A stretch of DNA of 64,000 nucleotides, taken from NCBI GenBank assembly GCA_032249235.1, contig JAVVGF010000001.1, forward strand, positions 1-64,000, read 5' to 3'. Of the stretch, positions 1,708 through 9,732 are shown one piece after another. How positions within the stretch are numbered: the first letter of the stretch is position 1; every line of letters begins with the position of its first letter. The DNA comes from Thermoproteota archaeon. Lineage in GTDB: Archaea > Thermoproteota > Thermoprotei > Gearchaeales > Gearchaeaceae. The position numbers and the translations under genes are program-made. Under the pieces are notes generated by a model, which saw only the letters and a program-made list of their open reading frames with translations, was not told the DNA's origin and made no database searches.

Positions 1708-1915
1708 TATTATAAAAAATTAGCCTAGCTTGCGAGTATTTTTCGCATAATATAGCGATATAATGAAAGCAATATTTTCTCAATCAAGTTCCTTGCATTT
1801 AATGTTACGGCTTTCCATTCAAGAACTTAATGAAATCAATTCTCAAGCTTTTAAAAAAAACGGAGAAGCTAAAGCTCTAACAAGCTTTTATTTAAGATAC
1901 ATCATCAACTTTACA

Positions 1916-2959
1916 ATGGAAAGTTATATAAAAGGCTTGCATCATATAACACTCGTAACAAGAAATTATCGCGTCAATTCATGGTTTTATACAAAAATTT
2001 TGGGATTGAAACAAGTAAAGCTAAGCGTAAATCAAGATGACATTTTTCATAGGCATGCATTTTATGCAAATGAAAATAAAACAGTAGGTTCAACAATAAC
2101 ATTTTTCGAATGGCCCTTCTTAGATGAAGGATATGTAGGTCTTGGATCTCCTCATCACCTTTCATATCTTGTTAATTCTTTGGAAGCTTTGATTAAATGG
2201 AGATCTTGGCTTAAATATAACAAAATTCCTGTAAGCAAAATATATCATAGATTGAATGGTGCTTCAATCTATTTTAAAGATCCTGATGGCGTTTTGATTG
2301 AAATTAAAGTCAATTTAAGCGAAAAGATTGATGAAGGATATTTAAATGAGCTAATGAGAGATGAGAAGGAAGTCAAGGAGTTAAGCTCAGATATGAAATT
2401 AATTGCTTTTGAGCATGCGACACCTATAACTATCGTAGACCATGAATTAATTCGATTCTTTGAGAAAATATTGGGCTTGAAGAAGAGCTATGAGATAATC
2501 AATCCTGATGATCCAAGAACAAAAATTCTAGCTATAGGAAATGATGAAAAAGAAGATTTCCTTCGCTATATTTATTCTGATTCAGCTATCGAAGGATATG
2601 TAGGCATTGGTTCAATTCATCACATAGCTTTCGCAGTAGAAGATGAATATCAACAAAGAGAAATAATGAAGAAGCTTAGCTCTTTGGGAATAAGAAATTC
2701 AGGAATAATAAACAGGTTATGGTTTAAATCGCTCTACTTCAGAGAATTGAATGGTAACCTTTTAGAAATTGCAACAATTGGTCCTGGATATGAAATAGAT
2801 GAAAAGCCAGAAGAACTAGGAACAAAGCTTGTTTTACCTCCTTGGCTTGAAAAATATAGAAAAGAAATTGAATTGAAATTGAAGGAACAAGATGAAAGTA
2901 ACCAAGCAGTCTTCCCGCCGAAATTCAAGAATCCTCCAGATCCTCCTGAAAAATTATAA
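1916..2959 (+). CDS. VOC/glyoxalase-family ring-cleaving dioxygenase (MhqO-like)
   Basis: GLHHITL, HHIAFAV, FKSLYFRE, EIATIGPG and LGTKLVLPPWLE motifs. Start moved from 1763 to the ATG at 1916, where family similarity begins. Confidence 0.85.
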   Translation: MESYIKGLHHITLVTRNYRVNSWFYTKILGLKQVKLSVNQDDIFHRHAFYANENKTVGSTITFFEWPFLDEGYVGLGSPHHLSYLVNSLEALIKWRSWLKYNKIPVSKIYHRLNGASIYFKDPDGVLIEIKVNLSEKIDEGYLNELMRDEKEVKELSSDMKLIAFEHATPITIVDHELIRFFEKILGLKKSYEIINPDDPRTKILAIGNDEKEDFLRYIYSDSAIEGYVGIGSIHHIAFAVEDEYQQREIMKKLSSLGIRNSGIINRLWFKSLYFRELNGNLLEIATIGPGYEIDEKPEELGTKLVLPPWLEKYRKEIELKLKEQDESNQAVFPPKFKNPPDPPEKL

Positions 2960-2993
2960 CTGACTTATTGATATATTTATAAGCTAGTTATAA
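2954..2993. promoter_or_regulatory. Tandem 17-bp palindromic operators (candidate ThiR sites) overlapping the TATA box of the ECF operon
   Basis: TTATAACTGACTTATTG (2954-2970) and TTATAAGCTAGTTATAA (2977-2993); a related motif occurs at 8757-8785. Confidence 0.6.
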
Positions 2994-3005: not shown

Positions 3006-3635
3006 ATGGCTATGCAGAAAAGTAAGAGTTACAGGTATACAAGTTTAGATGTTTCTGCTTTAGCAGGTGTAGCAGTCATATCTGGTGTTATATTCTTGAT
3101 TGCAAGCAACTATGTATATTATCCTCTTAAAGGACTTACTCCATTATTCCCTGCAATGTCAGTAATATGGCCTGTTATGTATGGAGCTTGGTTTATAGGA
3201 GGAACTGCTGCTGCTTACATTATTAGAAAGCCTGGAGCTGCTTTCTTCGGTGAATTTCTAGGAGGCTTGGTAGAAGCTGTTTTAGGTTCAAGTTTCGGAA
3301 TTAGCGTATTGATTTGGGGGGCTTTGCAAGGATTGGCAAGCGAAGCTGCTTTTGCAATATGGAAATATAAGAGATATGATTATGTTAGCATGAGCTTAGC
3401 AGGCTTCCTACCTGGATTACCTATTCAAATAGCTGGCTGGTACATGTTTCCAGATCTTTATATTGCTGTGATTGATTATGCAGGTTATGGTGGCCTTGCA
3501 GCATTCATATTATTGCATTCAATAAGCGGCTTAATAATTGCAGGAATACTTACTAAGTATTTCATAGACAAAATCGCTTTAACAGGAATCTTCGATCTAT
3601 TTGAAATTGGAAAAGAAGTAAAGAAGAAGATTTAA
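3006..3635 (+). CDS. ECF transporter S component, YkoE-like (thiamine/HMP)
   Basis: GAWFIGG..AAYIIRKPGAAFFGE and GALQGLASEAAF motifs; about 6 TM; next to thiamine genes. Confidence 0.8.
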   Translation: MAMQKSKSYRYTSLDVSALAGVAVISGVIFLIASNYVYYPLKGLTPLFPAMSVIWPVMYGAWFIGGTAAAYIIRKPGAAFFGEFLGGLVEAVLGSSFGISVLIWGALQGLASEAAFAIWKYKRYDYVSMSLAGFLPGLPIQIAGWYMFPDLYIAVIDYAGYGGLAAFILLHSISGLIIAGILTKYFIDKIALTGIFDLFEIGKEVKKKI

Positions 3636-3636
3636 G

Positions 3637-5169
3637 TTGGATTTTTTAAAAGTAAATTCATATTTTTTCAAATATGCGAATTCTAAAGATTGGATTCTAA
3701 GAAATATTAGTTTCAGTTTAAACAAAGGAGAAACGCTATTAATATTAGGTCCAAACGGTAGCGGAAAGTCAACGCTTGCTCTTTCATTACTTGGAATAGC
3801 ACAAAAATATCCTTCTGAATTCAAAGGAGAAATAATCTATAAAGGAAAGAGCATACAAGAGTATGAAAGATATGAGCTTGCAAGAGAAATTAGCATAGTT
3901 CAACAAGATCCTGAAGCACAAATCATTACCTTATACGTCGAAGATGAAGTCGCATTCGGTTTAGAAAATTTACTTTACAAAGATATCGAAGAAAGGATTT
4001 CTAAAGCACTGAAGCTTGCAAGAATAGAACATAAAAGATATGATGAAACTTATTCTTTGTCTTATGGAGAGAAACAGAAGGTTATTCTTGCAAGTGTTCT
4101 TGCAGTTGATAATGAGCTTTTGATTCTAGATGAACCTACTTCAAATTTAGATTCGTTATCTAGAAAAGAATTTTTCAGAATACTCAAAGATCTAAAGGAA
4201 AGAAATGTGTCTACAATAATAATAGAGCATAATGTAGATGAAATTGCAAAGTTCGTAGATAAAGTTCTAGTTTTGAATAAAAGAGGAGAATTAATAAAGT
4301 TTGGAAAGTTTCCAGATGCAATTTATGAACTAAATACAGAAGATTTAGAAAAACTGGGAATTTGGCTTCCTTTTTCTTTAGAATTAAAATTATTCAAAAA
4401 GAACAAGATGAATAATAAAACAATTAAAAATATAAATGAAAAAGTATTAGAGATAAAAAATCTTAATTTTAAATATAAAAAACCTGTATTAAATAATATA
4501 AATTTAATTTTCGAAAAAGGGAAGTTATATTCGATTCTTGGCCCTAATGGTGCTGGAAAGACTACGCTTTGCAAGATCATCGCAGGCTTGTTAAAGAATC
4601 AGTCTGGCGAATTGAAATTTTATAATTCAAGTAGCGTTCGCTTTTGTTTCCAAAATCCTGACGTTCAATTTATAGGGAATACTGTGCTTGAAGAGCTAGA
4701 GATTTCTTATAAGTTCAGTAAAAACAAAAAATACAATCCGATTGAAATTTTGAAAACCTTCGGTTTAGAAGAATTATCCAATTACAATCCCCATATGCTA
4801 AGTGAAGGACAGAAGAAAATGCTGACTATTGCTTTATCTTTAATTTATGATCCTGACATTTTGATTTGTGATGAACCTACGTTTGCTTTAGATAGGTATA
4901 ATGCTAGAAGGATAATGGACATTTTGAGATCTTTAACTTATGAAAACAAAACAGTCATATTTACTACACATGACATTAGATTTGCTCTCGAATATGCAGA
5001 TCACATTATCTTCTTAGAGAATGGTGAACTGAAGTTTAATGGTTATGTTTATGATTTCATTAAAAGAATTGGCGAATTCAACATAGCTTTGCCTGCAGCT
5101 TTCGAATCTTTGAACTTTGAAGAATTGAGAAATTTCATTATTGAAATTCGTGGAAACAATGAAATTTGA
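3637..5169 (+). CDS. ECF transporter ATPase with two ABC domains (YkoD-like)
   Basis: Two Walker A motifs (GPNGSGKS, GPNGAGKT) and two DEPT Walker B motifs. Confidence 0.9.
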   Translation: MDFLKVNSYFFKYANSKDWILRNISFSLNKGETLLILGPNGSGKSTLALSLLGIAQKYPSEFKGEIIYKGKSIQEYERYELAREISIVQQDPEAQIITLYVEDEVAFGLENLLYKDIEERISKALKLARIEHKRYDETYSLSYGEKQKVILASVLAVDNELLILDEPTSNLDSLSRKEFFRILKDLKERNVSTIIIEHNVDEIAKFVDKVLVLNKRGELIKFGKFPDAIYELNTEDLEKLGIWLPFSLELKLFKKNKMNNKTIKNINEKVLEIKNLNFKYKKPVLNNINLIFEKGKLYSILGPNGAGKTTLCKIIAGLLKNQSGELKFYNSSSVRFCFQNPDVQFIGNTVLEELEISYKFSKNKKYNPIEILKTFGLEELSNYNPHMLSEGQKKMLTIALSLIYDPDILICDEPTFALDRYNARRIMDILRSLTYENKTVIFTTHDIRFALEYADHIIFLENGELKFNGYVYDFIKRIGEFNIALPAAFESLNFEELRNFIIEIRGNNEI

Positions 5170-5920
5170 AGATATAAATCCCATAACAAAGTTCTTGATT
5201 GCGATATTAGTTTTCGCTGTAGTAATTTTCGTTAAAGGAATAATACCTTTAGCCTTAGCTTCATTTTTATTTCTTATCTTGATTTTAATTTATACTTCAA
5301 AGAAATCATTCAGTCTTTTTCTTTTAAGCATATTGCCCTTCTTGATGATTATTTGGATAGTCAATGCTGCTTTTACTTTTTGCGGTAAAGAAATAATGAA
5401 TTTCTTCACTTGGAAGCTTACAGATGCAGGTTTCATTGCAGGAACGACAATAACTTTGAGAATATTTACCATGCTTTTAGCTTCTTACATTTTTGTTTCT
5501 TCTACAAATCCAAGAGACTTCCTTCAAGCACTTGTTAAGTATTTTAAAATGGACTATAGGATTGCTTTTGCAGCTTTCATTGCCATAAGATTGCTTAAGG
5601 AATCGAGAGCAATAATCAATGATTTCAACCAAGCATTTAAAGCTAGAGGACTTAATCCTTGGAATCCTAGAAGATTCTTTGCTTTGATTTCCTTAATTTT
5701 CTTTTCAACAATGAGAAGATTATTTACAATAGCAATTTCTGCAGAAAGCCGTGGATTTGGGAGTTACGATTATAGAATTTTTAGAAGGGAATTGAAAATA
5801 GGATTAAATGATTATTTATTTTCAATTATTATTTCATTAATAATTATCTTTTCATTTTTAATTGGAATTTATTATAATGATTTTTATTTTGGTGTATATT
5901 CTAATAGTTTTTGTCCTTAG
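5159..5920 (+). CDS. ECF transporter T component (YkoC/EcfT)
   Basis: INPITK N-terminus, ARG and SRGF coupling motifs, multiple TMs; ATG at 5159 (the ORF extends to 5141). Confidence 0.88.
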   Translation: MKFEDINPITKFLIAILVFAVVIFVKGIIPLALASFLFLILILIYTSKKSFSLFLLSILPFLMIIWIVNAAFTFCGKEIMNFFTWKLTDAGFIAGTTITLRIFTMLLASYIFVSSTNPRDFLQALVKYFKMDYRIAFAAFIAIRLLKESRAIINDFNQAFKARGLNPWNPRRFFALISLIFFSTMRRLFTIAISAESRGFGSYDYRIFRRELKIGLNDYLFSIIISLIIIFSFLIGIYYNDFYFGVYSNSFCP

Positions 5921-6304
5921 TTACTTATAAGTTTCGAAAATTACTTTATTCTTGTCATTAAGTATTAATATAGCTTTGCTGAAATTTTCTCTTGCAATTT
6001 CATCAATATCTCCTAAATACATGTTAGCTACTTTCCATTCATCTTTCAACTTCCATGTTGCGACTAAATGAACCTTTCCCCTTACTTCAATTATCCTTAT
6101 CTTATCTAAATATTCATCATTTACATCAATCGGTAAATAAACAAAAGAATCTTCTTCTCCAAAAATCCTTCCTTTTATTAAATATCCTTCCTTCTCTAAT
6201 TTATCTAAAATTGAATTTAATTCTTCGCCTTTAGCTTTGAGGATTTCACTTAGCTCCTCAACGCTTAATACCCTTCTAATTTTTGTTAATTCCTGTAAAT
6301 TCAT
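5921..6304 (-). CDS. Hypothetical protein with N-terminal winged helix
   Basis: LSVEELSEIL...ILDKLEKEGYL wHTH-like pattern; fills the gap between convergent operons. Confidence 0.55.
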   Translation of the reverse strand: MNLQELTKIRRVLSVEELSEILKAKGEELNSILDKLEKEGYLIKGRIFGEEDSFVYLPIDVNDEYLDKIRIIEVRGKVHLVATWKLKDEWKVANMYLGDIDEIARENFSKAILILNDKNKVIFETYK

Positions 6305-6370: not shown

Positions 6371-7015
6371 TTAAACTGTGCTGATTTGCTTTAAAGCTTT
6401 TCTATATTCGAGGATTTTTGATTTGAATGTTCTCGCAGCAGCTTCTGGATCTTCAGCTTTCAATATCGCTGAGATTACAGCTATGCCATCTACGCCTTTG
6501 GACAAAACTTGTTCAACATTCTTCAAATTTATGCCTCCTGAAGCGAATACAGGAATCTTAAGTCTTCTCTTTGCTTCTGCAACGACACTTAAAGGAACTA
6601 TTTCGCAACTATCAACACTTGAAGTTGGGAAGCATGCACAGAAAGAAATGTAATCAGCTCCTACTTTTTCAGCCCAAATAGCTCTTTCTAAATTGTTACC
6701 TATTGTATAGCCTACAATCATATCCTTCCTTATTTTTTTGACATCTGAAGGCAAAATATCATAATTATCAAAATGAACGCCATCGGCACCTAGTTCTAAG
6801 GCTAAATTATGATCGTTATTGATTATCAACAACGCATCATACTTTCTAGCAAGATTCAATAATTCTTTTCCTAATATCTTAGCTTCTTCTATGCTTTTCC
6901 AATTAGACCAGAGTTGCAGAATATCGACGCCGCCTTTCAAAGCTTTTTCAACTCTTTTTAGCAATTCTTCTTTTTCTATACTTGCATCAACTACTAGATA
7001 CAATCCTCCTTTCAT
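6371..7015 (-). CDS. thiE: Thiamine-phosphate synthase family protein (atypical ThiE)
   Basis: LYLVVD, ALKGGVDILQL, LIINND, GADGVH, ASGGIN and GIAVISAI TIM-barrel motifs; several catalytic residues are altered. Confidence 0.85.
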   Translation of the reverse strand: MKGGLYLVVDASIEKEELLKRVEKALKGGVDILQLWSNWKSIEEAKILGKELLNLARKYDALLIINNDHNLALELGADGVHFDNYDILPSDVKKIRKDMIVGYTIGNNLERAIWAEKVGADYISFCACFPTSSVDSCEIVPLSVVAEAKRRLKIPVFASGGINLKNVEQVLSKGVDGIAVISAILKAEDPEAAARTFKSKILEYRKALKQISTV

Positions 7016-7041
7016 CGTTAATGAACTAATTTAACTTCGAT

Positions 7042-8085
7042 TTATTTGTTTCTAAATTCCCTCCAGAATGCTTCCCAATAAGGATCTATATCAACACTTT
7101 CAATCATGATTTTTTTGTTATCTTCAATCAACCATCTTCCATAACTTTTATCTTTAATTTCTCCGATCTCGAATGCCTTTATTCCTTCTTTTTTTAATTC
7201 TTTTATCAAATCTTCAGCATAATTTTTTTCAACACAGCAAAGTAATCCTCCTTCGTTCAAAGATTTTAGAGGATCTATTTTGAACAGCTCGCAAACTGCT
7301 TTTATATCTTCATCGATTTCTATTTTATCTTTATATACTACGACTCCTTTTTCTGAAGCTTCACAAAGCTCATATATAGCGCCCAGGAGGCCTCCTTCTG
7401 TACAATCATGCATAGCATGAACAACCTTTCTAAGACCCAATTTAGCTGCAGTTAAGCTATCTTTTACTGTTGAAAATGAATATAGCATATCGCTTAGTTT
7501 CTTTTGAACTCTAGTTCCTAGTTCTTTTTCAACTTTTTCTTTGAAAACCCTTGCAAGTATTGAAGATGCGGAGATAGCAACTCCTTTTGTTAGTATCAAT
7601 GCGTCTCCTTCTTTAGCCATCGAGCTAGATACATATTCATCTTTTTTTGCAAAGCTAAACATTACGCCTCCGCCAACTACAGTGAAATTACATCCTTCAT
7701 ATTTTCCAGTATGTCCGCCTATGATTGCAATTCCTAATTTTTCCATTTCTTCATGTATTGAATTCCAGTATATTTCGAAATCTGAATAGCTCAATTGAGG
7801 AGGTAAATTATAATCAAGGACTGCAAATTGCGGAGCTACACCTGATGTTGCGAGATCTGAAGCAAGCAAATGAACTGTTATCCATGCTGATTCTTTTAAT
7901 CCCAATGATGGAATGATCGATAGAGGATCTGAAGTGATGAGCAAAACGTTTTCTTCATCTATTTTAACAGCAGCGAAGTCTCCTCCAAGCTTTGGACCTA
8001 AAATAACTTTTTCATTACTTTTCCCTAATTTTTTGAATATTACTTCTTTCAAAAACCTTTGACTGGCTTTACCTAATTCACTCAT
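7042..8085 (-). CDS. AIR synthase-related (PurM/ThiL/HypE superfamily) ATP-dependent protein
   Basis: GGDFA, TSDP, ASDLATSG, IIGGHT and AMHDCTEGGL motifs. Confidence 0.88.
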   Translation of the reverse strand: MSELGKASQRFLKEVIFKKLGKSNEKVILGPKLGGDFAAVKIDEENVLLITSDPLSIIPSLGLKESAWITVHLLASDLATSGVAPQFAVLDYNLPPQLSYSDFEIYWNSIHEEMEKLGIAIIGGHTGKYEGCNFTVVGGGVMFSFAKKDEYVSSSMAKEGDALILTKGVAISASSILARVFKEKVEKELGTRVQKKLSDMLYSFSTVKDSLTAAKLGLRKVVHAMHDCTEGGLLGAIYELCEASEKGVVVYKDKIEIDEDIKAVCELFKIDPLKSLNEGGLLCCVEKNYAEDLIKELKKEGIKAFEIGEIKDKSYGRWLIEDNKKIMIESVDIDPYWEAFWREFRNK

Positions 8086-8746
8086 TCCTTGTTTTCACCC
8101 CTAAGCAAAGGAAAGCTCCGAAAGGGAATTTTCTTGACTTAAGACTTCCAAATATCTTTGGAAAGGCTGTAGTATCCCAATACACTATTTTGAAATTGTT
8201 GTTCAATGCATTTTTTAGTTTTTTCTTTATTCCTAAAATTGAATAAAAAGTAGTATTAATATAGTATGGATTTTTGCCTAACGCAATTTGTATCATTCTT
8301 CTCAAAGTAGGTAAGCTCCATTTATTCATTAAGCCTATTATTAAGCCTTTTCTTGAAACTCTTGTAGCCTCCTTTATTACTTCTTCCAACCTAGGCATAT
8401 ATTCCATACATGTTATGAAGGCAATAGCATCGAAAGATCTATCTCTAAAAGGCAAATAATGTGCTTCTCCTTGAACTAAATCTCCTCTCCATCTCTTTTT
8501 AGCTTCCTTTAGCATTAGTGGCGAAATATCCATACCTACAGCGTATAGATTGAAATTTTTCTCAAACCATCTAGTAAAATAGCTCGTTCCACATCCAACT
8601 TCGAGTAAACTTTCAGCATTTCCCAATTCTTTTAATGCTTTGCTCAATAGTTCTTTTTCAAGTTCTACTACTTTTTTGTATTTTGTTTCATAGAAACTCT
8701 CATAATTCTCGACATATTCTTTTCTTAAAAACCAAGGCAGACTCAT
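8078..8746 (-). CDS. Class I SAM-dependent methyltransferase
   Basis: LLEVGCGT, GMDISPLML and LPFRDRSFD motifs. Confidence 0.9.
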   Translation of the reverse strand: MSLPWFLRKEYVENYESFYETKYKKVVELEKELLSKALKELGNAESLLEVGCGTSYFTRWFEKNFNLYAVGMDISPLMLKEAKKRWRGDLVQGEAHYLPFRDRSFDAIAFITCMEYMPRLEEVIKEATRVSRKGLIIGLMNKWSLPTLRRMIQIALGKNPYYINTTFYSILGIKKKLKNALNNNFKIVYWDTTAFPKIFGSLKSRKFPFGAFLCLGVKTRNE

Positions 8747-8756
8747 TAATATACAC

Positions 8757-8785
8757 TAATAAGTCAGTTTATAAATTAGTTATTA
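8757..8785. promoter_or_regulatory. Divergent promoter with candidate ThiR operators
   Basis: TAATAAGTCAGTTTATA (8757-8773) and TTATAAATTAGTTATTA (8769-8785) in the 38-bp gap between divergent starts. Confidence 0.55.
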
Positions 8786-9732
8786 TGTTATATCCTGAGG
8801 AATTATTCATTAAAGATATTTTACCTAATTTCAGAATTGTTTTGGCAAAAAAACTAATAGAGAAAGGATATTCACAATCTAAAATAGCTAAGCTTATAGG
8901 CGTAACGCAAGCAAGGGTTAACACATATGCCAAAGCTGACTTGAAAAAAGCATTAGATAAGATTGAAGAGATTGGCTTCAATATAGAAGAATTCAACTCT
9001 TTAATCGATTCGATTGTCAATGAACAATCTTTAGATGCAATATTCATACTTAGGAATCTTAGAAATTATTTCCTTTCATCTTTAACTTCTGGCTTATTGT
9101 GTAAATATCACATTAAAGTAGCTAACTTAAGTCCTTATTGTGATGTATGTTTAAAATATAAAGAAGTCTCGAGCTTAACTGAAAGATTGAAAATGATGCA
9201 AGAGATTAAAAAAGCCGTTGAAAATTTAGTTTCTTCAAAAGAATTCTTCTTTTTAATTCCAGAAGTATATACAAACTTGGCTTATTCACTACCAAATCCT
9301 CAAGGAATAAATGATGTTTTATCTTTTCCAGGAAGAATAATAAAGTTCAAGAATGCTGTGAAAATAATTTCAGAACCTGAATTCGGGGCTTCTAAGCATA
9401 TAGCTAACATGTTAATAGAAGCAAATAAGAAAAATCAGGAGATAAGGGCTTGTCTCTGCATAAAGTATGATGAAAATATTTTAAGGATAATTAAATCACT
9501 TAGATACTCTTTTGCCTTCAACTATAAGAAGAAGAAAATTTATCAAGATCCTGTAGTGGAAGCTTTCAAGGAATTCTTGAAGAATAATCCTGTGCCACAG
9601 ATATTGATAGATAAAGGAGGAAAGGGATTAGAACCTGTATGTTATATATTTGGCAGAAATCCTTCAGAAGTAGTTAGTATAGCCTTGAGTATTTCTAAAA
9701 GTTATTTCGAGCGAGTAATAGTTGCGATATAG
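8785..9732 (+). CDS. thiR: ThiR-type regulator: XRE HTH fused to a ThiN (thiamine-phosphate synthase-like) domain
   Basis: YSQSKIAKLIGVTQARVNTY HTH; LIPEVYTNL, PGRI, PEFGASKHIA and GGKGLEP ThiN motifs; start placed at the ATG at 8785. Confidence 0.8.
   Translation: MLYPEELFIKDILPNFRIVLAKKLIEKGYSQSKIAKLIGVTQARVNTYAKADLKKALDKIEEIGFNIEEFNSLIDSIVNEQSLDAIFILRNLRNYFLSSLTSGLLCKYHIKVANLSPYCDVCLKYKEVSSLTERLKMMQEIKKAVENLVSSKEFFFLIPEVYTNLAYSLPNPQGINDVLSFPGRIIKFKNAVKIISEPEFGASKHIANMLIEANKKNQEIRACLCIKYDENILRIIKSLRYSFAFNYKKKKIYQDPVVEAFKEFLKNNPVPQILIDKGGKGLEPVCYIFGRNPSEVVSIALSISKSYFERVIVAI

Follow-up and report, generated by a model that had tools for sequence, protein, structure and literature searches.

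What might a methyltransferase, a member of the aminoimidazole ribonucleotide (AIR) synthase family and an aberrant thiamine-phosphate synthase be doing in a single operon? The question is raised by three genes in a stretch of 64,000 nucleotides from a Thermoproteota archaeon (GenBank assembly GCA_032249235.1, contig JAVVGF010000001.1, positions 1 to 64,000), which we refer to as the window. A first-pass annotation of this DNA had suggested that the three enzymes act together on an imported thiamine precursor, analogue or breakdown product, for example by methylation, ATP-dependent activation and condensation. In this study we found that the triplet is one conserved thiamine-regulated unit, controlled by ThiR in this archaeon and by a thiamine pyrophosphate (TPP) riboswitch in bacteria. 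The operon is widespread and controlled by vitamin B1, and it appears to make thiamine phosphate by an undescribed route. Whether it is, more specifically, a thiamine-repressed salvage module in an organism unable to make either half of thiamine is in our judgement an even call. The three genes were called as the following open reading frames (ORFs).

8078-8746, minus strand: methyltransferase (MT), 222 aa, predicted class I S-adenosylmethionine (SAM)-dependent enzyme that looks like a Trm112 partner
7042-8085, minus strand: AIR-synthase/PurM-superfamily protein (AIRS), 347 aa, candidate hydroxyethylthiazole/thiamine kinase
6371-7015, minus strand: altered thiamine-phosphate synthase (ThiE*), 214 aa, without the presumed pyrophosphate-binding residues

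The ORF calls agreed to the base with the layout described earlier: the genes are co-oriented, MT shares 8 bp with AIRS (8078-8085), and AIRS is followed by ThiE* after a gap of 26 bp (7016-7041).

The conservation of this arrangement was assessed in AIRS loci taken from one genome per species; at least 597 relatives were found and the best 80 loci were kept. The order MT-AIRS-ThiE was present in 46 of these best 80. An MT homologue lay directly upstream of AIRS in the same number, a ThiE homologue was adjacent in 60 and a ThiN-domain ORF in nine. Bacteroidota contribute 41 loci with this order, spread over many families, and Kryptonia, Bipolaricaulota and Bathyarchaeia share it; among further Thermoproteota loci it was found in 4 of 20, the same genus included. 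The arrangement is far beyond chance and recurs across several phyla, in keeping with the earlier treatment of the triplet as a unit. The AIRS family is large, and its relatives in the protein collection are named only automatically, e.g., 'AIR synthase family protein' or 'HypE'.

A TPP riboswitch (Rfam) lies 30-100 bases upstream of MT in all 16 Bacteroidota loci scanned. The Bipolaricaulota locus L011 has one upstream of an ATP-binding cassette (ABC) importer and MT-AIRS-ThiE, and the Chloroflexota locus L080 has one upstream of AIRS-ThiN; the Rfam scan detected none in loci L004, L052, L068 and L082. In archaea ThiR adjoins the operon, and it is divergent from it in the window and in loci L107, L106 and L016. 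The regulatory and transport features of the window are listed below.

8785..9732, plus strand: ThiR-type regulator, helix-turn-helix (HTH) plus ThiN-like ligand domain (PF10120, 160.6 bits; weak HTH_3 match)
3006..3635, plus strand: YkoE-type S component of an energy-coupling factor (ECF) transporter, predicted pyrimidine/thiamine uptake (PF09819, 109 bits)
3637..5169, plus strand: YkoD-type double ECF ATPase with two ABC domains (TIGR04520, 325 bits)
5141..5920, plus strand: YkoC/CbiQ-type ECF T component (PF02361, 48 bits)
2958..2969, plus strand: candidate ThiR operator word AACTGACTTATT, a 12-mer repeat, upstream of ykoE
8758..8769, minus strand: second copy of the candidate operator word (12-mer repeat), in the divergent MT/ThiR spacer

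Both the divergent ThiR and the YkoEDC-like ECF transporter close by (3006-5920) had been named in the first-pass annotation, and the PF10120, PF09819, TIGR04520 and CbiQ-type matches confirmed them. The regulator has an N-terminal DNA-binding domain (the weak HTH match) fused to a ThiN-like domain, and it stands beside thiamine genes, 38 bp from MT. Its PF10120 match covers residues 191-350 of a long ORF, for which the likely start is 8785; the same start is kept in a same-genus genome, where the YkoEDC / ThiE-AIRS-MT / ThiR layout is identical. The word AACTGACTTATT has three exact copies in the 1.43-Mb host genome against 0.69 expected: one upstream of ykoE, one inverted in the MT/ThiR spacer beside TATA-like boxes and one in a convergent intergenic region. 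In the same-genus genome it occurs at both thiamine promoters, with two mismatches each, and we consider it a candidate ThiR site only. The third exact copy (G000:C1:344960, L109 1461-1472; G000 denotes the host genome) is flanked by an acyl-CoA dehydrogenase gene and an aldehyde dehydrogenase gene that converge on it, and no ORF of at least 80 aa starts near it in L109; its membership of the regulon therefore found no support. A SAM riboswitch at L031 11855-11956 (Pelobium manganitolerans), about 4 kb downstream of the thiamine operon, is probably unrelated.

An indication of an unusual chemistry came from ThiE* itself. The protein of the window is a full-length member of the family (TMP-TENI, 156.9 bits; TIGR00693, 160.2 bits against a cut-off of 145.1), and Bacteroidota ThiE* scored 91-116 bits, below that cut-off in 4/4. 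We take R59, K61 and K159 to be the pyrophosphate-binding residues of B. subtilis ThiE, in line with the structure papers on that enzyme. When the window protein was aligned to B. subtilis ThiE, these three positions were occupied by W, N and V, and the earlier description of the enzyme as altered was thus borne out. The same changes were found in all 46 MT-linked ThiE, one of which (L005) is broken by stops and was read from a fragment. Position 59 was never Arg (45 Trp, one Tyr), position 61 was N or H and never K, with W or F usually following, and position 159 was V, A or S and never Lys. ThiE proteins next to AIRS without MT kept Q-x-R and T-K in 12/12, and the two altered ThiE without a visible MT both lie at contig ends. 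In the Bathyarchaeota triplet of genome G023 (L005 7061-7672), ThiE* is split into two ORFs and the match spans two TAA stops, so that the gene may be a pseudogene or an assembly error.

The altered proteins are under strong constraint of their own, with 16 invariant columns. D83, S124, C126 and C137 are invariant in 48/48, at positions where the canonical neighbours have G, G/A, V/G/A and A/E, respectively; neither cysteine occurs in any of the 12 canonical proteins. The thiazole-phosphate site is kept, with S/T at 156 and 158 (T156, T158) and with GG and (I)S invariant or nearly so, and so is Q57. The Mg aspartates D93 and D112 are present in the window protein, as they are in some members from archaea, Kryptonia and Bipolaricaulota; most Bacteroidota have Q/R/H and P instead. 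Judged from these residues, ThiE* can hardly bind hydroxymethylpyrimidine (HMP) pyrophosphate in the known way. Because the pyrophosphate site is missing, we propose that it couples thiazole phosphate to a donor other than HMP pyrophosphate.

MT always accompanies ThiE*, a co-occurrence that is perfect across at least five phyla. It scored 69.9 bits with Methyltransf_11 (cut-off 21.2), and in 32 sequences neither the glycine-rich SAM motif LEVGCGT nor D73, the acidic residue that follows strand 2, varies. Its structural model (predicted local distance difference test, pLDDT, 90.7) matches SAM methyltransferases, with uncharacterised small methyltransferases nearest; by model and motifs, MT is a class I SAM-dependent methyltransferase. 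Among the structural neighbours the Haloferax volcanii Hvo_0019-Trm112 complex stands at rank 6-7, and Bud23-Trm112 is listed as well. A Trm112-like ORF of 85-100 aa follows ThiE in 40 of the 41 Bacteroidota triplet loci, the exception ending at a contig edge, and in none of the nine non-Bacteroidota triplets. Its best curated match is archaeal Trm112 (63.5 bits, cut-off 77), and the host archaeon has a Trm112-like ORF elsewhere in its genome, outside the operon. Since the bacterial operon holds a Trm112-like gene and the structural neighbours include Trm112 complexes, MT looks like a Trm112-partner enzyme whose bacterial operon carries its own partner. No MT fusions were apparent among the 150 best of 457 relatives at E ≤ 1e-10.

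These relationships also allow another reading, namely that MT modifies RNA or protein within the Trm112 network and just happens to be co-transcribed, that ThiE* is inactive or TenI-like and that AIRS alone matters. The solved relatives nearest to MT do include Bud23/WBSCR22 as well as the Hvo_0019 complex, and the Bacteroidota ThiE* do fall short of the ThiE cut-off. However, we regard this as highly improbable, given the perfect co-occurrence of MT with ThiE*, the overlap of the genes, the TPP riboswitch in front of the operon and the tight constraint on ThiE*. A role of ThiE* as the TenI thiazole tautomerase was rejected: it scored 95.3 bits with NF005819 against 251, and ThiG, the maker of the TenI substrate, was not found in the host or in 24 of 26 triplet genomes.

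The latter figure comes from a phyletic profile of 45 AIRS-carrying genomes, 26 with the triplet and 19 without, many of them incomplete metagenome-assembled genomes (MAGs). The host genome (1.43 Mb, 91% complete, ~31% GC) contains a genuine ThiL on another contig (G000:C5; TIGR01379, 208.7 bits). Searches of it did not find ThiC, a true ThiD (best match 18 bits), a true ThiM (only a partial match in a 501-aa ORF) or a full Thi4 (only dinucleotide-binding N-terminal matches), and its only ThiN-domain match is the ThiR gene. By gene content, the host thus has the coupling enzyme and the last kinase but lacks any known route by which either half of thiamine could be made or activated. This absence of a known route to the ThiE substrates implies an imported precursor, as the first-pass annotation had supposed. 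Among the 26 triplet genomes, a true ThiD was not found in 24 and TenA was not found in any, and ThiE* is the only PF02581 match in 16; ThiD is present in 12 of the 19 carriers without the triplet. MT and ThiE* therefore occur where ThiD and a normal ThiE are missing. The losses of ThiD and TenA, together with the residues lost from ThiE*, imply that MT and ThiE* probably replace ThiD and ThiE and would use a pyrimidine donor that is not pyrophosphorylated.

The identity of AIRS was examined at the level of family, fold and genomic context. It matched both AIRS (PF00586, 40.3 bits) and AIRS_C (PF02769, 101.3 bits), and its translation contains the GGHTG and MHDCTEGG motifs reported earlier. 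The AlphaFold2 model (pLDDT 90.5) has the two-domain PurM fold, all top Foldseek matches being superfamily members, with HypE nearest (template modelling score, TM, 0.78) and then ThiL (TM 0.66-0.67). With both Pfam domains and this predicted fold, AIRS is a member of the PurM superfamily. It fell below the curated cut-offs for HypE (TIGR02124, 92.6 vs 251.6 bits), ThiL (TIGR01379, 91.6 vs 184.15 bits), SelD and PurM. AIRS is not ThiL, because a genuine ThiL coexists with it in 44 of the 45 carrier genomes, the host included; the suggestion that it is HypE-like rather than ThiL therefore held, as far as the predicted fold goes. HypE and PurM themselves were excluded by the scores and by a context of thiamine, not hyp, genes. 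In HypE a C-terminal cysteine presumably carries the cyanide precursor; AIRS has no C-terminal Cys, ends in ...WREFRNK and has a conserved D-P-Y-W tail instead. A search of proteins 609-2000 residues long gave no long AIRS fusions at E ≤ 1e-30, which is weak evidence. A second AIR-synthase-like paralogue of the host (G000:C1:137209-138135; L002 1420-2439, minus; 339 aa) is 29% identical, lies below all curated cut-offs and adjoins an AAA+ clamp-loader-like gene. Its family is widespread, the AIRS profile detecting relatives at ~200-290 bits in most of 212 of 301 Thermoproteota genomes.

Among its immediate same-strand neighbours in 100 loci (ORF calling was rough in those of high GC), AIRS was linked to a thiamine-phosphate (TMP) synthase or a thiamine transporter in 79: to MT + ThiE in 50, ThiE in 10, ThiD in 7, ThiN in 6, ThiT in 3, an APC permease in 2 and ThiD + ThiE in 1. 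The remaining 21 had no recognised neighbour. Pfam searches with 92 neighbouring proteins from 17 AIRS loci revealed TenA / MFS-ThiD-AIRS-ThiE in a Thermoplasmatota locus, ThiT-AIRS in two Bathyarchaeota loci, and also ECF-S-MT-AIRS-ThiE and AIRS-ThiN. In six Thermoproteota loci AIRS is overlapped by a ThiD-type ORF of ~460 aa, which, judging from its length, we take to be a ThiD-ThiN fusion. What all these loci have in common is AIRS. In a FastTree phylogeny of 101 AIRS sequences (local support values only, several rows of unusual composition), all MT-linked proteins fell into one well-supported clade of 59, which also holds unlinked proteins and those linked to ThiT or a permease, from genomes that yielded no ThiD. 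Proteins linked to ThiD, ThiN or canonical ThiE belong to other clades.

What AIRS might supply is suggested by what its carriers lack. ThiM was found in none of the 45 genomes, ThiG was present in four, Thi4 in one, ThiC in five and ThiL in 44, and no thiazole synthase was found in 40 of 45. Thus, most carriers must salvage thiazole phosphate or thiamine phosphate, and would have to do so without the known kinases. In the ThiT-AIRS genomes G024 and G028 we found no ThiE, ThiN, TPK, ThiD or ThiM; ThiL is present in G028, and thiamine uptake, AIRS and ThiL would be the whole pathway there. As AIRS also occurs without MT beside canonical ThiE, ThiN, ThiD-ThiN and ThiT, its most fitting substrate would be the hydroxyethyl group of thiazole or thiamine. 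From this context and the phyletic pattern, we somewhat favour AIRS being a hydroxyethylthiazole/thiamine kinase, an analogue of ThiM/ThiK.

The same profile could be read to mean that AIRS is an HMP or HMP-phosphate kinase replacing ThiD, with a chemistry like that of ThiL, which phosphorylates a phosphate monoester. The absence of a detectable ThiD from the host and from nearly all triplet genomes would agree with this, as would the MAG G041, which has ThiC and a riboswitch-AIRS-ThiN operon and in which no ThiD was found. However, AIRS stands beside or overlaps ThiD in eight loci, 12 of the 19 non-triplet carriers have ThiD, and the ThiE of the ThiD-less genomes has no pyrophosphate site, which makes HMP pyrophosphate an unlikely substrate. 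We therefore regard a ThiD-like role as very unlikely and continue with AIRS as a kinase of the thiazole side.

The pyrimidine side may be approached through the importers. In the L011 operon, the binding protein of the importer has as its best match the structure 3IX1 of ThiY (117 bits), which binds formylaminomethylpyrimidine (FAMP). Four archaeal loci have an ECF S component immediately upstream of the triplet (L009 4622-5317, L102 2944-3510, L103 3792-4337 and L104 3323-3913), and its substrate may be the precursor. The S component of L009, a locus labelled Bathyarchaeota, had only weak Pfam matches (ECF-ribofla_trS, ECF_trnsprt), and no NCBIfam match was obtained for those of L009 and L102. 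In ThiE*, an aromatic pair takes the place of the anion site, and its new cysteines resemble the nucleophile of thiaminases and TenA. From these three clues, i.e., the ThiY-like and YkoE-type importers, the aromatic pair and the cysteines, we propose that the donor is an imported aminomethyl-type pyrimidine to which MT gives a better, probably cationic, leaving group.

A FAMP-type importer could also feed a different reaction of AIRS, in which the enzyme activates an amide as HypE and PurM do, e.g., the formyl group of imported FAMP, and methylation then yields the leaving group for ThiE*. In sequence and fold AIRS is nearest to HypE, the FAMP-binding-type importer is co-transcribed in L011, and 24 of the 26 triplet genomes yielded neither TenA nor ThiD. 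However, amide activation leaves unexplained why AIRS occurs without MT beside canonical ThiE/ThiD, ThiD-ThiN, ThiN and ThiT, and 40 of the 45 genomes would be left without any way to thiazole phosphate. We find this version quite unlikely.

Taking AIRS as the thiazole or thiamine kinase, the pathway could run as follows. The YkoEDC transporter, with others elsewhere, would import thiamine-related compounds. AIRS would act as an ATP-dependent kinase on the hydroxyethyl group, converting hydroxyethylthiazole and/or thiamine into thiazole phosphate or thiamine phosphate, and would thereby be a non-homologous stand-in for ThiM/ThiK. ThiE* would couple thiazole phosphate to a pyrimidine donor other than HMP pyrophosphate, a function that we assign tentatively and with less than even confidence. 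MT, with Trm112, would prepare or activate this donor in place of ThiD, the donor being most likely an imported aminomethyl- or formylaminomethyl-pyrimidine. Finally, the separate genuine ThiL, the gene for which is present, would convert thiamine phosphate to TPP. The earlier proposal of salvage or modification by three enzymes thus stands in part: the unit is conserved and thiamine-regulated, AIRS is not ThiL, ThiE is altered and import of a precursor is implied. Two of the checks that it had set, conservation elsewhere and control by thiamine, both spoke for it. A division of labour, with AIRS acting on thiazole or thiamine and MT and ThiE* on the pyrimidine side, fits better than the methylation, activation and condensation of a single substrate.

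The module might instead repair or remodel intact thiamine that is damaged or an analogue (oxidised, ring-opened or base-exchanged) and not join free halves at all. AIRS would then phosphorylate the compound or activate it with ATP, its phosphate would hold it in ThiE*, and the cysteines of ThiE* together with MT would carry out the correcting chemistry. The triplet AIRS do share their well-supported clade with AIRS encoded beside ThiT in genomes that yielded no TMP synthase; ThiE* has retained its site for the thiazole phosphate and gained two invariant Cys and an Asp, and the fold of AIRS is nearest that of the thiocarbamate-activating HypE. However, the importer of the L011 operon is of a pyrimidine type resembling FAMP-binding ones, not a thiamine importer, and AIRS also pairs with ordinary ThiE, ThiN and ThiD, where joining halves is the obvious job. 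Moreover, we know of no damaged compound that would need a methyl group. Repair is in our view unlikely.

Several observations weigh against assembly from salvaged halves with AIRS as the kinase. Everything stated about it comes from sequences and models, from which the chemistry is deduced. No member of the PurM superfamily is known to phosphorylate an alcohol, and the AIRS model is nearer to HypE, an amide-activating enzyme, than to ThiL. Only 6 of 14 control genomes had ThiM, which may be uncommon in these lineages in any case. Among 301 sampled Thermoproteota, 34 genomes had an AIRS match of 316 bits or more (a cut-off set post hoc), and Thi4 was found in 18 of these vs 166 of 301 overall; mutual exclusion of AIRS and Thi4 was thus not seen, and the AIRS family is therefore not confined to thiazole auxotrophs. 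The AIRS profile had matches in 212 of these 301, a figure that is not an ortholog count, since the profile also detects a paralogous family (at ~200-290 bits). G041, with ThiC and no ThiD found, would fit an HMP-phosphate kinase role of AIRS. Many of the genomes are incomplete MAGs, and that of the window is 91% complete. Furthermore, the triplet genomes G010 and G018 also hold a full de novo operon. In these two Bacteroidota isolates (L041 and L070, respectively), ThiC, ThiD, ThiE and ThiG lie on one contig in addition to the riboswitch-MT-AIRS-ThiE*-Trm112 operon.

At its boldest, the assembly route would have methylation replace pyrophosphorylation as the activation of the pyrimidine. MT, as a Trm112-type enzyme, would turn imported aminomethylpyrimidine (AmMP) or FAMP into a positively charged 'onium' donor, and ThiE*, with its Trp/aromatic pair and Cys/Asp residues, would transfer the pyrimidinylmethyl group to thiazole phosphate. 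The latter would be made by a PurM-family kinase, the missing thiamine kinase of archaea, and the whole would be independent of ThiC, ThiD, TenA and ThiM. As a complete scheme we consider this rather doubtful. If true, such a route would occur widely among Bacteroidota of soil and water and across several archaeal phyla, and it would be the first case of a methyltransferase in thiamine assembly.

Two further ORFs of the window adjoin the transporter genes. A 127-aa ORF (5921-6304, minus) lies between ykoC and thiE and had faint HTH / ORF80-like matches only. It was excluded as part of the module, as it has no counterpart in L107, the locus from the same genus, in which ykoC adjoins thiE, and for this reason it resembles a recent insertion. 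Directly upstream of ykoE, at 1763-2959 (plus), a 398-aa protein with two glyoxalase/VOC domains is encoded, in a position kept in the same-genus genome. The nearest public locus, with 81% identity, is labelled Thermoproteota.

Thiamine synthesis and salvage are usually regarded as fully mapped, and genome-based calls of vitamin B1 auxotrophy depend on that map. The riboswitch-controlled operon, present in dozens of Bacteroidota genera and in several archaeal and candidate phyla, contains three or four enzymes with no assigned role in thiamine metabolism. With ThiE* hardly able to accept HMP pyrophosphate by the known binding mode, a genome in which ThiE is scored as present and ThiD as absent may in fact be capable of using precursors. 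To our knowledge archaea have no ThiM, ThiK or TPK, and AIRS is a concrete candidate for their long-missing thiamine/thiazole kinase. In the literature we found no report that connects thiamine operons with an AIR-synthase-family protein, a methyltransferase or Trm112, although the regulon tables of the 2017 ThiR paper may list these genes. Passages of the OarX paper (PMC11223231) likewise name no methyltransferase and no AIR synthase.

Compared with known systems, ThiE* remains closest to ThiE (TIGR00693 / PF02581; B. subtilis 2TPS, 1G4T), with which it shares the TIM-barrel family, the full-length hidden Markov model match (above the cut-off in the window), the thiazole-phosphate site (T156, T158, GG, IS) and Q57. 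It differs in that R59, K61 and K159 are replaced by W (once Tyr), N/H and V/A/S in the MT-linked members, in the new invariant D83, S124, C126 and C137, and in the Bacteroidota scores below the cut-off. AIRS resembles ThiM/ThiK in its proposed role and operon position, ThiD-AIRS-ThiE mirroring thiD-thiM-thiE. It is not homologous to ThiM, which has a ribokinase-like fold, whereas AIRS belongs to the PurM superfamily and its activity is predicted from context. With HypE and ThiL it shares the two-domain PurM fold and the ATP-binding motifs of the superfamily, but it scores below their curated cut-offs, has the D-P-Y-W tail and coexists with a genuine ThiL. The MT of the triplet is like the Trm112-dependent methyltransferases (Bud23, Mtq2, Trm9, Trm11; Hvo_0019) in its Methyltransf_11 fold, in its Trm112-complex neighbours and in the archaeal-type Trm112-like gene that ends the Bacteroidota operon (40/41); however, the known partners modify RNA or translation factors, whereas MT is fixed in a riboswitch-controlled vitamin operon. 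Finally, the module has pyrimidine-type importers, thiamine regulation and a ThiE end point in common with the ThiXYZ/YlmB/TenA/ThiD salvage pathway (FAMP to AmMP to HMP to HMP pyrophosphate), but the triplet genomes put MT and ThiE* in the place of TenA and ThiD.

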